DNA of 64,000 nt from the NCBI GenBank assembly GCA_965215505.1, contig OZ244065.1, positions 896,001-960,000 on the forward strand, written 5' to 3'. The stretch comes from Capsulimonadaceae bacterium (GTDB taxonomy: Bacteria; Armatimonadota; Armatimonadia; Armatimonadales; Capsulimonadaceae). The notes under the pieces are model-generated. The model was not told the DNA's origin, searched no databases, and saw only the letters and a program-made list of their open reading frames with translations. Positions 1,953-5,739 of this stretch are shown in pieces; the first letter of the stretch is position 1, and the number at the start of each line of letters is the position of its first letter. The position numbers and the translations under genes were made by a program.

Positions 1953-2996
1953 CTACCGCTTCACGGGATACCCCTGCCACAGCCATTCCAAAGCGCCGGG
2001 GAGGGTCTGCCGCGTCACCCGCCCATCCACATGCCCCGCCCCTTCGGCGTACACATACCGGTAATCATACCCTTTCGCCTTCAGAGCCGCCGCCATGCGC
2101 TGGTTCGCCAGCACCCAGTTGTGCAGCGAAGCCTCGTCCCGCGTTGAGCCGTTATCGTGTTCGCCGACTTCCAGCCAGACCCGCAGCGGCTTGCGGGCGC
2201 TCTGCCCGATCAGATGCTCGTGGTACTCCCACGCCCCGTGCGGCGAGGCGGGATTCGGCGGCGACTGCTGGTTGACGTAGGTGCCCGAGTAAGTCAGCAC
2301 GCGCCGGTACAGGTCCGGCCGGAACCAGGCCATCGTGAAGGCCGCCGCCCCGCCCGAGCTGCCGCCCATCGTCGCCCGGCCGTCGGGGTCCTTGGTAAAG
2401 GTAACCGAATAATCCCTAGTGATCCGGGGCAGCACCTCGGTTTCGACGAACCGAGCGTAGGCGTCCGAAACGGTGTCGTATTCCAGCCCACGCTCGCTCC
2501 CCTGGGCATCGCCCCCGCCCGAGTTGATGAAGACGGCGACCATGACGGGCAGGCGGCGCTGCTGAATGAGAGTGTCGAGGGCGCGCGTCACCACGTCCCG
2601 ATAGCCCAGGCCGTCCTGGACGACGAGGAATGGCGCCGGTGTGCCGGGGACGTACTGCGACGGGACGTAGACCGCCACCCGGCGCTGATACGGGACCGTG
2701 CCCGGCTGGTTCTTGGCGATGCCGGGGTAGATCTTGCTGTCGGCGGAGTCCATGGTGAACTCGTGGACCGCCCCGCGCGGCACATCGGGTGCCACCGTCA
2801 ACTCGGGCGCGTCGGCATACACCGGCCCGATGGTCAGCTCCGCCTGATCCGCCGCACCCCTGGCCCTGGCCTCAGCCGTGCGAGCGGGCGGCGTCTTGGC
2901 GCTGTCGGCGGACGCGCAGCTTGAAGCCAGCAGCATTGACGCCAGTGCGAGGGGGAGCAAGAAAACGGGGCCAGCCAACCTGTAGGCGTTCTGCAT
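1953..2996 (-). CDS. secreted esterase, alpha/beta hydrolase (enterochelin esterase-like)
   Basis: GGSSGG nucleophile motif, signal/lipoprotein-like N-terminus; start trimmed to MQNAY after an AGGAG RBS. Confidence 0.82.
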   Translation of the reverse strand: MQNAYRLAGPVFLLPLALASMLLASSCASADSAKTPPARTAEARARGAADQAELTIGPVYADAPELTVAPDVPRGAVHEFTMDSADSKIYPGIAKNQPGTVPYQRRVAVYVPSQYVPGTPAPFLVVQDGLGYRDVVTRALDTLIQQRRLPVMVAVFINSGGGDAQGSERGLEYDTVSDAYARFVETEVLPRITRDYSVTFTKDPDGRATMGGSSGGAAAFTMAWFRPDLYRRVLTYSGTYVNQQSPPNPASPHGAWEYHEHLIGQSARKPLRVWLEVGEHDNGSTRDEASLHNWVLANQRMAAALKAKGYDYRYVYAEGAGHVDGRVTRQTLPGALEWLWQGYPVKR

Positions 2997-3039
2997 GACT
3001 TTCTCCTTTGCACCCGCCGCCGGATGCGCCACAGACTGC

Positions 3040-3074
3040 AAAACCCCCGGCGCAGGATCTGCGCCGGGGGTTTT
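3040..3074. terminator. intrinsic terminator downstream of tRNA-Thr (bidirectional hairpin)
   Basis: AAAACCCCCGGCGCAG-GAT-CTGCGCCGGGGGTTTT perfect inverted repeat. Confidence 0.8.
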
Positions 3075-3093
3075 CACTCTTTGATATGCGAAC

Positions 3094-3165
3094 AGCCGAC
3101 ACGCGGATTCGAACCGCGGACCTGCTGTTTACGAAACAGCTGCTCTACCACTGAGCCATGTCGGC
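3094..3165 (-). tRNA. tRNA-Thr(CGU)
   Basis: cloverleaf GCCGACA...TGTCGGC T; anticodon arm GCTGT-TTCGTAA-ACAGC; GTTCGAATC T-loop; CCA not encoded. Confidence 0.95.
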
Positions 3166-3180
3166 GTGAGTTACGGGCGA

Positions 3181-3210
3181 ATTATACTGCAAACCGGGGG
3201 TGCCTGTCAA
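3181..3210 (-). promoter_or_regulatory. consensus sigma70 promoter of tRNA-Thr
   Basis: TTGACA-N18-TATAAT on the minus strand, 15 nt upstream of the tRNA. Confidence 0.85.
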
Positions 3211-3215
3211 GAGGG

Positions 3216-3929
3216 TCAGCCGACGATCTTGCGGAGCATGTCGGGGCTGTTGGTGATGATGCCATCCACTTTGCAGACGTGGCGCATCCGGCGCATGTCT
3301 TCCGAGAGGTCCACTGTCCAGGCGTAGACCAGTTTGTCGCGCCGGTGCAGGATGTCCACGAGTTCCGGGGTGAGAAGGCGGTGATGCCAGGTGACGGCCT
3401 CCGTATCCAGGCTCAGAAGCAGCGCGGGCGTGATCAGGTGTTTCTGGTCTATGTCGAGAGTCAGGCTGAGGGGGATGCGCGGGTCGAGGCTGCGGAGGAT
3501 GCGGCGGCTGACTTCGCCCGCGCCGGAGACCAGGAGCGACTCGCGGGGGAACCCGGAGTGCCGGATGGCGCGGGCGATGAGGGTTTCGGCCCCCGGCTCC
3601 TTGAAGTCCAGCATCAGGCCGACGCCCGCCTCGGCCGCAAGCGTAAACGTCTCGTCCAGGGTCGTCAGGGCCTCGCCCCACTCGCCGCCGTTCCGCCGCC
3701 ACTGCTGGAAGCTGCGGTCCCGAAGGGGAACCTCCTCACCGTCGAGCAGGTGTACGCTCTCATGGTCCAGGATGAGTACATCGTCGCGGGTGCGGCGCAC
3801 GTCCACCTCCAGCATCTGCGCGCCCGCCTCTACGGCCCGGCGCAGGGAGGCGAGCGTATTGCCGGGCGGGACCAGGTAGGGGGCACCGCGATGGGCAACG
3901 ATTGGGAAAGGACGCAGCTCAGAGGGCAT
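3216..3929 (-). CDS. glycerophosphodiester phosphodiesterase family protein
   Basis: AHRGA, EVDVRRTRD, WTVD, DGIITN motifs. Confidence 0.9.
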   Translation of the reverse strand: MPSELRPFPIVAHRGAPYLVPPGNTLASLRRAVEAGAQMLEVDVRRTRDDVLILDHESVHLLDGEEVPLRDRSFQQWRRNGGEWGEALTTLDETFTLAAEAGVGLMLDFKEPGAETLIARAIRHSGFPRESLLVSGAGEVSRRILRSLDPRIPLSLTLDIDQKHLITPALLLSLDTEAVTWHHRLLTPELVDILHRRDKLVYAWTVDLSEDMRRMRHVCKVDGIITNSPDMLRKIVG

Positions 3930-3966
3930 GGGACTACGCTATCATTCTGGGGGGCAGAAACAGTTA

Positions 3967-3989
3967 AAGGGAGAGCATAGCCCTCCCTT
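3967..3989 (-). terminator. putative terminator downstream of tRNA-Phe
   Basis: minus strand AAGGGAGGGC-TAT-GCTCTCCCTT followed by TAACTGTTT. Confidence 0.5.
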
Positions 3990-4043
3990 AGTTTACGTCA
4001 ATGAGTAACATCAACTTGTAATGTTGTTCATCTTGTGGTGATA

Positions 4044-4119
4044 TGGTGCCGCCTACCGGACTTGAACCAGTGACACCTCAATTTTCAGTCGAGTGCTCTA
4101 CCAACTGAGCTAAGGCGGC
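4044..4119 (-). tRNA. tRNA-Phe(GAA)
   Basis: 76-nt cloverleaf GCCGCCT...AGGCGGC ACCA; anticodon loop CTGAAAA. Confidence 0.95.
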
Positions 4120-4138
4120 ATTGCGATTAGACGGGCCT

Positions 4139-4167
4139 ATTATACCTGCGGCATCTTGAAAATGCAA
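4139..4167 (-). promoter_or_regulatory. sigma70 promoter of tRNA-Phe
   Basis: TTGCAT-N17-TATAAT on the minus strand; the -35 lies inside the inverted repeat GCATCTTG/CAAGATGC. Confidence 0.7.
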
Positions 4168-4195
4168 GATGCTGTCACACGGAAATGTGAGAAGA

Positions 4196-4226
4196 TGATG
4201 GGCGAGGCAGAATTTGAACCCGCGAC
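4196..4226 (-). pseudogene. 3' remnant of a canonical tRNA (probably Val)
   Basis: minus strand GTC-GCGGG-TTCAAAT-TCTGC-CTCGCCC-A-TCA = end of variable loop, T arm, acceptor 3' strand, A73 and degenerate CCA; no adjacent D or anticodon arm. Confidence 0.72.
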
Positions 4227-4246
4227 TATGATCGGAGAGCAACAAA

Positions 4247-4325
4247 TCGTCCCGACAAGACTCGAACTTGTGATGTGGTATGCCTCCGTGTAAAGGAGGT
4301 GGAATCGCCGCTATCCAACGGGACG
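4247..4325 (-). tRNA. atypical tRNA-Val(UAC)
   Basis: acceptor CGTCCCG/CGGGACG + A73; D arm GGA/TCC with A14, G18G19; anticodon arm CCTCC-TTTACAC-GGAGG; 11-nt variable region; T arm ACAAG-TTCGAGT-CTTGT. Confidence 0.85.
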
Positions 4326-4913
4326 GTAATCGTATTCTCTTCCGTTATAATACTGCCTGCGGGTTCGTCTCCCGTTCCCCTTGTTTCCTCCTTTGTAGGT
4401 TAATGTCTGAGCATCACAATTGCAACAGACAAGTCTCAGATTACACAGGGCGTTGTTGTCGGCGTGACCGTCAACATGATCAAGGACAAGAGGAATATCC
4501 TCGCCCATCCACTTGTCAAGGCTACAGATCGTACACTGCTTACCAGATGTTAAAGCCAGGTATTTCTTGCCACCATATTCGCTGGGCGCAACTCCTGTTG
4601 TCTCCATGCGAGCCAGATACTGGTCAGATTGGCACGCTCTGCTACAGAACTTGTCCCGGTTGGCTTTGAGCTTTCGACCACAGGAGCAGAAGGCAGACGG
4701 GATGCCATCCCGGCGGACGCCTTGATTATTAACTTTCGCCGCACAACTCGTTGAACAGAAAGTGTTGTTGCGCTTCGAGTAGTCCAAGAGTCGTTCGCAG
4801 TGGCGGCAGGTTCTCGGACTAGCTTGATGAATTGACAACCGAGTTTGATACTTCTGAGCGCAAGCCAGCTTTGCTTTCTCTACATCGATTCTTGCGGCCT
4901 CGGCTTTTGTCAT
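4311..4913 (-). CDS. HNH endonuclease with multiple CxxC/FCS zinc-binding motifs (homing endonuclease-like)
   Basis: CTIC...LVLDHVDGHADNNALCNLRLVCCNCD HNH signature; N-terminal CRHC, FCSTSC, FCSRAC; visibly more AT-rich than flanking genes. Confidence 0.88.
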   Translation of the reverse strand: MTKAEAARIDVEKAKLACAQKYQTRLSIHQASPRTCRHCERLLDYSKRNNTFCSTSCAAKVNNQGVRRDGIPSAFCSCGRKLKANRDKFCSRACQSDQYLARMETTGVAPSEYGGKKYLALTSGKQCTICSLDKWMGEDIPLVLDHVDGHADNNALCNLRLVCCNCDAQTLTYKGGNKGNGRRTRRQYYNGREYDYRPVG

Positions 4914-4944
4914 GTTCCCACGCCACTCGCTCTCTTAGTCGTGG

Positions 4945-4973
4945 AGTGTACCCCCAGACCGCTGATAAGTCAA
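4945..4973 (-). promoter_or_regulatory. sigma70 promoter driving the HNH/tRNA-Val unit
   Basis: TTGACT (4973-4968)-N17-TACACT (4950-4945). Confidence 0.75.
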
Positions 4974-5053
4974 GCGGGCCGTTCCCCTACGTTTGCGCCG
5001 GGAGACGTTCGGGTATTTTTGCGGCAGGACTGATACAGTCCGGGAGGGCATTT

Positions 5054-5323
5054 ATGAAGATCACATTCCAGGCCGCCGCGCTGTCGGCGGCACTCACGCT
5101 CGCGGCCAGCGTGCCATTCGCGGCCCCGGCCGCGGCGAAGACTACTCACCACAGCAAGCGCGCGACGCGGAGCCACGCGGCGACCAGCCATGGCACGACG
5201 ACCCGCAGCAGCGCGATGAGTAAGGGCAGCATGAAGTCGGGCACGACGGCGGCACCGACAAGAGGCATGGCGAACCCGGCCATGTCCACGGCCCCGGCGA
5301 CGAGCGGCGGCGACAAGCCATAA
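5054..5323 (+). CDS. small secreted basic low-complexity protein
   Basis: GGAGG RBS, Sec signal peptide ending in AxA, H/K/S/T/M-rich tail, followed by a terminator. Confidence 0.7.
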   Translation: MKITFQAAALSAALTLAASVPFAAPAAAKTTHHSKRATRSHAATSHGTTTRSSAMSKGSMKSGTTAAPTRGMANPAMSTAPATSGGDKP

Positions 5324-5339
5324 TCACACCCCGACGCGC

Positions 5340-5373
5340 AGCCGCCCCCCGCACACAGGGGGGCGGCTTTTTT
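5340..5373 (+). terminator. intrinsic terminator
   Basis: AGCCGCCCCCC...GGGGGGCGGCT hairpin with T-tract. Confidence 0.8.
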
Positions 5374-5376
5374 CCG

Positions 5377-5739
5377 TCAGGGCAGCCCTTCCGGCAGGAT
5401 CTCGAACTGGTTACCCCAGGGGTCGCGGACGGTGAAGCGGGGGTAGCCCATCGGGATGGAAGCGCCCTCGGTGGCATAGCCCATGCCGGAAAGGTGGGCG
5501 CGGGCGGCCTCCACGTCACTCGTCGCAAGAGCCGTGTGGCCCCCGCCGACGACGCCCTCCGGCGGCTGGCCGATGTGGAATTTCACCTGCCCGGCGGAGA
5601 ACCATAGCACGGAGACGTGGGCGAGCGAGGGCGGCGTCGGCACCTCGGTCAGCCCCAGCCCTTCCCCATAGAACCGGCGGACGTCGTCGGGCGAGGCACC
5701 GGGGGCCATCAGATAGATGTGATGCACGGCGAGTTTCAT
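5377..5739 (-). CDS. VOC/glyoxalase family protein
   Basis: HHIYL, FYGEGLGL, DPWGNQFE motifs; start trimmed to MKLAV. Confidence 0.85.
   Translation of the reverse strand: MKLAVHHIYLMAPGASPDDVRRFYGEGLGLTEVPTPPSLAHVSVLWFSAGQVKFHIGQPPEGVVGGGHTALATSDVEAARAHLSGMGYATEGASIPMGYPRFTVRDPWGNQFEILPEGLP

Follow-up and report, generated by a model that had tools for sequence, protein, structure and literature searches.

A probable homing-endonuclease cassette with a substitute tRNA-Val(UAC) inside the native tRNA-Val gene of a Capsulimonadaceae bacterium

How does a bacterium come to carry the two ends of one tRNA gene on either side of a nuclease gene and a second, complete tRNA gene? The question is raised by a segment (minus strand, 4973-4196) of a 64,000-nt stretch of DNA from a Capsulimonadaceae bacterium (assembly GCA_965215505.1, contig OZ244065.1, positions 896,001 to 960,000), which is referred to below as the window. 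The genome that holds the window (G000) measures 6.18 Mb; the other G codes denote genomes of relatives, and L063 is a metagenome contig. Read in order, the segment consists of a tRNA promoter, a decayed 5' tRNA piece, an HNH open reading frame (ORF), a tRNA-Val(UAC), and a 3' tRNA piece. The structure of the locus and its history could be established. The segment is probably a free-standing homing-endonuclease cassette, made up of the HNH gene and a foreign tRNA-Val(UAC) in ~690 bp, that is lodged in the host's single native tRNA-Val(UAC) gene.

The native tRNA-Val gene and the insertion point

An initial annotation of the window had named the promoter, the string GAGCGAGTGGCG, the HNH ORF, the tRNA-Val(UAC), and a 3' tRNA half, and all of these were recovered in the same places on the minus strand. 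The promoter, originally that of the native tRNA-Val gene and now driving the cassette (4945..4973), comprises a -35 element TTGACT at 4973-4968, a 17-nt spacer, and a -10 element TACACT at 4950-4945. It is followed by the 5' remnant of the native tRNA-Val(UAC) (4914..4932), which starts with GAGCGAGTGGCG at 4932-4921, and then by the HNH ORF (4311..4913), the cassette tRNA (4247..4325), a 12-nt spacer forming the right end of the cassette (4235..4246), and the 3' remnant (4196..4234). The G+C content was ~50% over 3900-5000 and ~70% in the flanks, in line with the earlier description of a cassette of AT-richer DNA. Contigs from three other studies span the complete cassette with 4-5 differences each, none of which lies in the cassette tRNA and one of which restores the native base in the remnant. 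Because these independent contigs cover the whole cassette, the assembly is not at fault.

A 3-kb region was used to search 40 relatives, and the loci were then read and aligned. The close relative G012 lacked the ~760 bp that separate promoter and 3' tRNA half and had an intact 75-nt tRNA-Val(UAC) instead. Its first 12 letters agreed with the window's stub at 11/12 positions, and its last 28 letters before CCA agreed with the 3' half at 27/28. Since the 3' half has a single occurrence in the 6.18-Mb genome, such a match to the relatives' tRNA lies far beyond chance. An intact GGGCGAG...CTCGCCCA(CCA) tRNA stands directly upstream of tRNA-Phe in relatives, as had been anticipated, and the predicted GGGCGAG...CTCGCCCACCA tRNA has the anticodon UAC, which makes the ancestral tRNA a tRNA-Val. 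The proposal that the flanks are the two ends of one tRNA gene thus held, with both ends matching the relatives' intact tRNA-Val(UAC).

This tRNA-Val(UAC) upstream of tRNA-Phe, here called type A, was 100% identical over 72-75 nt in six genomes, namely G012, G007, and G015 of the same genus and G024 and G061/G062 from two further genera in the same family. Identity was 90% in the sister family, where three genomes have it. Since type A is identical across genera and conserved to this degree in the sister family, it is the ancestral housekeeping tRNA-Val(UAC), and the window carries both of its ends.

The least decayed copy of the cassette was found in L063. There, the promoter is followed by type A positions 1-28 without any change (28/28), and the HNH start codon lies two bases after position 28; the cassette tRNA, the 12-nt spacer, and positions 37-72 come next. 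The 3' remnant of L063 agrees with type A at 34/36 letters, i.e., with two changes, which gives 62/64 for both remnants together. Between the remnants, only ~8 nt of the anticodon loop are missing, and the 3' remnant of G067 retains the anticodon letters. Since the remnants reach positions 28 and 37, the event was an insertion into the anticodon loop with the loss of ~8 nt, not a replacement of positions 13-44. The earlier idea that the middle of the tRNA had been replaced stands insofar as a cassette was inserted, with its junctions in the anticodon loop and not after position 12. Likewise, both proposed remnants are real, and their limits had to be redrawn: the 5' remnant runs to 4914, and the 3' remnant starts at 4234 and not at 4226. 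The near-unchanged state of the L063 remnants (960-989 and 1670-1705) is accompanied by a number of synonymous substitutions per synonymous site (dS) of ~1 in the HNH gene versus G000; this points either to a recent insertion or to some constraint acting on the remnants, e.g., a role as leader or processing signal.

In the window, the 5' remnant corresponds to the same type A positions 1-28, lacks an 11-nt segment between two short repeat copies, carries 3 substitutions, and now forms the leader of the HNH ORF. The 3' remnant corresponds to positions 37-72, with 31/36 aligned letters kept, and contains the 3' strand of the anticodon stem, the variable loop, the T arm, the 3' strand of the acceptor stem, and A73. 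It ends in TCA, where the intact allele of G012 has CCA, and at position 4211 the native base is still present in other strains. The 12-nt spacer is common to L063 and G011 and measures 37 nt in G067. In public run X3, the contig of a related organism departs from the window at 4181, just upstream of the tRNA-Phe promoter, and runs on into what seems to be the 3' end of a type-A tRNA-Val, CCA included; the sample of this run thus contains an organism that possesses this end of the native allele or more of it.

The promoter had been proposed to be captured from the native gene, and the same tRNA-Val promoter is indeed conserved in relatives: the block GCTTGACTT...GGTA(T/C)AAT is found ahead of both the intact tRNA-Val (G012) and the cassette (G011, G022, and L063). 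A consensus scan also recovered TTGACT-N17-TACACT, which alone is weak evidence (2 sites per 1.5 kb versus 0.8 expected).

Anticodon loops of tRNA genes are classic sites for integrase-borne islands and for group I introns, and the insert could on this ground be regarded as an island remnant at a tRNA attachment (att) site or as a degenerate group I intron with an encoded nuclease. No integrase was found in or beside the 690-bp insert, which consists of the HNH ORF and the tRNA only, and the direct repeats at its ends measure only 10-16 nt, which is chance level. Nor does the insert restore the host tRNA, both halves of which remain as non-functional pieces. An Rfam scan of 2900-5400 with E up to 1 returned only three tRNAs and chance-level matches. 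Moreover, ~8 nt including the anticodon are missing, so that splicing would be unable to rebuild the tRNA. With neither an integrase ORF nor an intron family match, the earlier view of an element that needs no integrase or splicing was upheld, and an origin from either kind of insertion is hardly credible. A review of tRNA-borne group I introns is given in PMC3984707.

The cassette tRNA and the dependence of the host

The cassette tRNA (type D, 79 nt) was identified by ARAGORN and by the Rfam tRNA model (47.2 bits, E 2e-8). Its variable loop measures 11 nt, its D stem contains one U:U, it has A73, and its anticodon UAC lies in a 7-nt loop; its minimum free energy structure is a cloverleaf. With its cloverleaf, its UAC in a 7-nt loop, and its A73, it has the features predicted for a functional tRNA-Val. 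All 79 letters are identical (79/79) in the five known carriers of the cassette, G000, G011, G022, G067, and L063.

We next consider the remaining tRNA-Val genes of the host. ARAGORN listed 63 tRNA genes and one transfer-messenger RNA in the 6.18-Mb genome, and the single tRNA-Val(UAC) among them was that of the cassette. Infernal gave 59 tRNA-like matches; four extra or odd ones were long tRNA-like RNAs, none of them a tRNA-Val(UAC). Both programs thus agree with the earlier supposition that the genome has no tRNA-Val(UAC) besides the atypical one. Full-length alleles of type A or of types B and C, which occupy the same locus in relatives (see below), were not found in G000, G011, G022, or G067, where only remnants or other isoacceptors were present; the positive controls of these searches were recovered at 100%. 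GUA makes up 2.6% of the valine codons and is present in 1215 of 2070 long coding-like ORFs (a heuristic gene set). Under standard wobble rules, tRNA-Val(GAC) and tRNA-Val(CAC) are unable to read GUA. Since the only tRNA-Val(UAC) is that of the cassette, the predicted gene set shows the cell to depend on the cassette tRNA as the only reader of GUA.

Several other observations concern the tRNA set of G000. ARAGORN listed no tRNA-Leu(UAA). Housekeeping isoacceptors are present a second time in a cluster of six tRNAs at 2219562-2221409, which may have been acquired as an array. The four long tRNA-like RNAs (G000:C1 1685236-1685344, 1685447-1685566, 4778535-4778657, and ~1210560-1210700; 109-125 nt) have normal acceptor, D, and T arms, and a structured insert of 40-50 nt replaces the anticodon arm. 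They form two pairs with shared motifs, score 39-44 bits with Infernal, and are detected by ARAGORN only in intron mode.

Searches for the source of the cassette tRNA gave no match in viral contigs with a 69-nt exact pattern and none in the phage collection with the 79-nt query in distant mode; the 740-nt cassette had no match in plasmids. A 34-nt exact word of the cassette tRNA, a type of matching that would miss diverged relatives, occurred only in G011, G022, and G067 among genome contigs, plus one metagenome contig, L063. Among 13 tRNA-Val genes near viral HNH homologues, none resembled the cassette tRNA (44-50/79 letters).

The alleles upstream of tRNA-Phe were then counted in 24 genomes of the genus. 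Type A was present in 3 of them, type D (the cassette tRNA) in 3, type B or B' in 8, and type C or C' in 6; the other 4 had no tRNA-Val within the stretch read. Types A-D differ throughout their stems, and the neighbouring tRNA-Phe is nearly invariant. No type-A remnants were detected beside type B or C alleles with up to 7-8 mismatches allowed. The type C' tRNA-Val(UAC) of six species (L044, L046, and L048) shares an 18-nt D-arm stretch with the tRNA-Val(UAC) of two viral contigs (L126/L127), and type C shares T-arm features with another viral tRNA-Val. Type C, judged by this resemblance, may also be a phage-derived replacement.

Such alleles could also arise by selection at the RNA level, if a toxin or a defence nuclease cut the native tRNA and the foreign tRNA served as a resistant substitute, with the HNH gene as its linked vehicle. 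The occurrence of four very different tRNA-Val(UAC) types at one locus beside a tRNA-Phe that hardly varies is in keeping with this, as is the D-arm stretch that type C' shares with a phage tRNA-Val; phage tRNAs are reported to evade tRNA-targeting defences. However, the anticodon loop is the usual target of anticodon nucleases, and its sequence UUUACAC is identical in types A, B, C, and D. Furthermore, the native gene was destroyed by the insertion and not merely supplemented, and no tRNA nuclease was seen at the locus, where no search aimed at one was made. We regard selection of this kind as an improbable cause of the cassette. A defence that cleaves tRNA-Tyr is mentioned in PMC13096335.

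The HNH nuclease, its carriers and its mobility

The HNH ORF (ATG..TAG) encodes a protein of 200 aa with two N-terminal Cys4 modules and a CxxC..DH..N..CxxC-D core. Its G+C content is 50.6%, with 53% at third codon positions. The protein matched PHROG 10822 (E 3.5e-16) and PHROG 14736 (E 2.2e-15), both annotated as HNH endonuclease; Pfam HNH_3 scored 14 bits, below its cut-off of 24.8, and NCBIfam gave no match. In an alignment of ten members, C127, C130, H146, N158, C163, and C166 were invariant (10/10). The HNH of L063 is 82.7% identical. Between G000 and L063, the number of nonsynonymous substitutions per nonsynonymous site (dN) was 0.085 and dS was 0.97, giving a dN/dS of 0.088 over 197 codons. 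By this ratio, the nuclease is under purifying selection.

The stop codon of the HNH ORF sits 12-14 nt inside the cassette tRNA. Two further full-length public proteins (P0002 and P0003), with 85% and 70% identity to the window's HNH, have as their C-terminus the tail that the first 15 nt of the cassette tRNA encode. The HNH stop in units linked to Thr(UGU) (L014-L017; G067, G066, G009, and G015) lies 10-30 nt inside the downstream tRNA. Since the overlap also occurs in these units, it is a family trait and no accident of the Val locus.

Linkage to tRNA genes was examined more widely. An HNH homologue was present in 38 of 71 genomes of the window's order, and a tRNA lay beside it at 24 of 30 chromosomal loci (17 downstream, 7 just upstream, and none at the remaining 6). 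The downstream tRNAs (17/30) are on the same strand, with starts ranging from 30 nt within the ORF to 22 nt past its end. The tRNA partners included Thr(UGU), Gln(CUG), Gln(UUG), Ala(CGC), Leu(UAG), and Trp. In IMG/VR, a tRNA was found within 1.5 kb at 79 of 80 viral loci, within 100 nt at 63, and directly downstream at 39; the three GenBank phage matches inspected were all in or beside tRNA arrays. The expectation that HNH homologues are followed directly by a tRNA was borne out at 17/30 chromosomal and 39/80 viral loci. The further expectation that split remnants of the same isoacceptor surround them in general was not, as only this cassette, in its five carriers, has them. In G000 itself, one HNH ORF (G000:C1:3434288-3434901) ends 3 nt before a tRNA-Gln(CUG), a unit common to many species of the genus, and another (G000:C1:1169914-1170581) lies ~40 nt after a tRNA-Gln(UUG); in both proteins, the N-terminal part resembles a helix-turn-helix.

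The five carriers occur in two genera, and in all of them the cassette is located at the same position of the same tRNA gene. At this one site, the gene is intact in G012, G007, and G015 and holds the cassette in G000, G011, G022, L063, and G067. In G000, the HNH gene is whole and the remnants are decayed. In G011 and G067, the HNH gene has internal deletions, with its start and its last 20-25 codons kept, and in G022, the HNH gene and the 5' remnant are gone, so that the cassette tRNA stands directly behind the promoter. The last 75 nt of the HNH ORF differ by 12-24% among carriers while the cassette tRNA is unchanged. The series can be read as the classic cycle of invasion, fixation, and decay of a homing endonuclease, with the twist that the tRNA is retained.

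Trees were made from 900 nt upstream and 900 nt downstream of the cassette. Both nested G012, with its intact allele, among the carriers; support was 96/97 in the upstream tree, and in the downstream tree 97/97 for the group and 90/92 for G012 + G011 + G022. The cassette of L063 differs from that of G000 at about half of the synonymous sites, and the remnants are far less diverged. Together, the nested position of G012, the presence of carriers in two genera, and the lower divergence of the remnants favour mobility, and repeated insertion into intact type-A genes would explain them better than a single old event.

The same locus could be a passive relic, in which a phage-derived HNH-tRNA module entered by one or two illegitimate recombinations, was then passed on vertically or by homologous exchange, and encodes a nuclease without a target in the native tRNA-Val gene. 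HNH relatives are common in phage tRNA arrays, the composition of the cassette is foreign, and the other HNH-tRNA units of the order lack remnants; only five carriers are known, all in one family, and their junctions are the same, as from one founding event. However, strong purifying selection over a dS of ~1 is unexpected for a passenger. An intact-allele species nested among carriers in two flank trees is also hard to fit to such a history, as are L063 remnants that agree at 62/64 although the cassette differs from that of G000 at many synonymous sites. We therefore consider a passive relic rather unlikely.

Several points weigh against a mobile cassette with an active nuclease. The flank trees are short (~900 nt each), have moderate support, and disagree on branching order, and recombination or ancestral polymorphism could mimic repeated gain. 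The HNH gene of L063 has a 1-nt shift near codon 5, which breaks the frame. The last His of the HNH motif is Asp167 in 6/6 Val-linked members and His in the four Thr-linked ones; variants at this metal-binding position are known in active enzymes, and Asp167 lowers the certainty of activity, not that of membership in the HNH fold. An AlphaFold2 model (mean predicted local distance difference test score 78.5) had HNH enzymes as its best Foldseek matches, led by a weak match to PacI (E 0.039); the HNH domain of Cas9, Cap5, and McrA were also among the top matches, none of which reached E 0.001 in the PDB. A phmmer search against PDB sequences returned only I-HmuI, again weakly (E 0.21). In the phylum outside the order, a tRNA was nearby at only 3 of 10 HNH loci examined, so that linkage to tRNAs is not common to every HNH homologue. 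Finally, the other HNH-tRNA units (Thr, Gln, Ala, and Leu), which often precede a native-type tRNA and in some cases a divergent one, have no split remnants, and insertion within a gene is thus not the usual mode of the family.

Taking both sides together, cleavage of the intact allele by the nuclease is the best-supported explanation and a probable one, with indirect support from the presence/absence pattern, the purifying selection, and the linkage of the family to tRNA genes. In the homing-endonuclease model, the nuclease would recognise DNA around the anticodon stem-loop of the intact native gene and cut there, and repair from a cassette-bearing copy would set the cassette between the two tRNA halves, splitting the target site. 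The cassette tRNA would be spared by its different stems (anticodon stem CCUCC/GGAGG versus GGACU/AGUCA in the native tRNA). The native promoter and the 5' remnant would drive a single transcript with the nuclease ORF and the tRNA. Because the stop codon of the ORF lies inside the tRNA, excision of the tRNA would take it off the nuclease message and hold nuclease output low. After fixation, the nuclease gene would be free to decay, and the tRNA could not be lost because it is the only reader of GUA.

Taken further, the cassette may be a natural home-and-rescue drive, the logic of which is akin to that of Cleave and Rescue (ClvR). Such a drive would make itself impossible to lose by destroying the sole tRNA-Val(UAC) and bringing a resistant copy. 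Repeated attacks by this nuclease gene and by related, phage-derived HNH genes linked to tRNAs would have led to the four alleles, and the overlap of the nuclease stop codon with the tRNA would couple tRNA processing to the shut-off of the nuclease. We see the chances of this extended reading as about even.

Downstream of the cassette, and outside it, lie the tRNA-Phe promoter (4139..4167, minus strand; TTGCAT-N17-TATAAT), which is conserved in all aligned relatives, and tRNA-Phe(GAA) (4044..4119, minus strand; ARAGORN and Rfam), the synteny anchor of the locus. In G014 (L010), G004 (L011), and G067 (L056), a second, unrelated-looking HNH ORF is located between tRNA-Val and tRNA-Phe; it abuts tRNA-Phe with its stop codon and is broken in G067 by a short tandem duplication. 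Another HNH-like ORF follows tRNA-Phe in L063 (1900-2300). The Val-Phe operon appears to be a hot spot for HNH-type genes. On the other side of the cassette, a small ORF (5054-5323, plus strand) is oriented divergently from the tRNA promoter; its start resembles a signal peptide, and its tail is rich in Ser, Thr, and His. A strong terminator hairpin follows at 5340-5368.

Comparison with known systems

A splicing intron, an intein, or an intergenic site is generally considered necessary for a homing endonuclease gene to spare its host. The locus would represent a third way, namely entry into an essential gene together with a functional replacement for it. Should the nuclease indeed cut the intact allele, the cassette would be a natural counterpart of synthetic cleave-and-rescue drives. 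It would then follow that foreign, probably phage-derived tRNAs can overwrite housekeeping tRNA genes of free-living bacteria, which would give a concrete cause for the four unrelated forms of tRNA-Val(UAC) within one genus, and the enzyme would be a candidate site-specific nuclease with a natural target of 30-40 bp. The open-access literature searched contained no description of a homing endonuclease cassette taking the place of a tRNA gene on a chromosome. What is new here is the insertion inside a cellular single-copy tRNA gene, without splicing and with a whole replacement tRNA inside the insert.

Integrative elements with tRNA genes as their targets bring along a copy of the 3' part of the tRNA. 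Like the cassette, they enter a tRNA gene and supply sequence by which tRNA function is kept. However, their insertion relies on an integrase and att repeats and reconstitutes the same tRNA, whereas the cassette is without both and supplies an unrelated whole tRNA. Group I introns in bacterial tRNA genes share with the cassette a homing site in the anticodon region. They restore the tRNA by self-splicing, whereas in the cassette no ribozyme was detected and a second complete tRNA gene is carried.

T4 SegB is a free-standing GIY-YIG homing endonuclease in the tRNA cluster of T4 that recognises tRNA-gene DNA (the T-psi-C motif), according to PMC2330249. It resembles the cassette as a free-standing nuclease gene among tRNA genes, and the same text has it spreading with neighbouring tRNA genes by intronless homing, with the loss of the recipient's tRNA markers. 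By contrast, its fold is GIY-YIG and not HNH, it passes from phage to phage, and it lies between genes and not inside one; it neither destroys an essential host gene nor leaves split remnants behind. Closer in fold are the cyanobacterial HNH gene all8564, upstream of the L-array (PMC8421152), and the HNH genes in mycobacteriophage tRNA clusters (PMC6409571). In the excerpts of these two papers, such genes are linked to tRNA operons and co-regulated with them and are proposed to spread tRNA genes horizontally. As described there, those arrays are accessory tRNAs on top of a full housekeeping set, whereas the cassette replaces the single housekeeping copy in place.

In logic, the cassette is like the synthetic ClvR elements (PMC6442612), and also like home-and-rescue drives. 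In both, a nuclease disrupts an essential gene and is tightly linked to a recoded copy that resists cleavage, so that carriers live on but come to depend on the element. These are engineered Cas9 systems in sexually reproducing animals and plants, whereas the cassette is a natural, protein-only element of a bacterial chromosome, with a putative cleavage activity.

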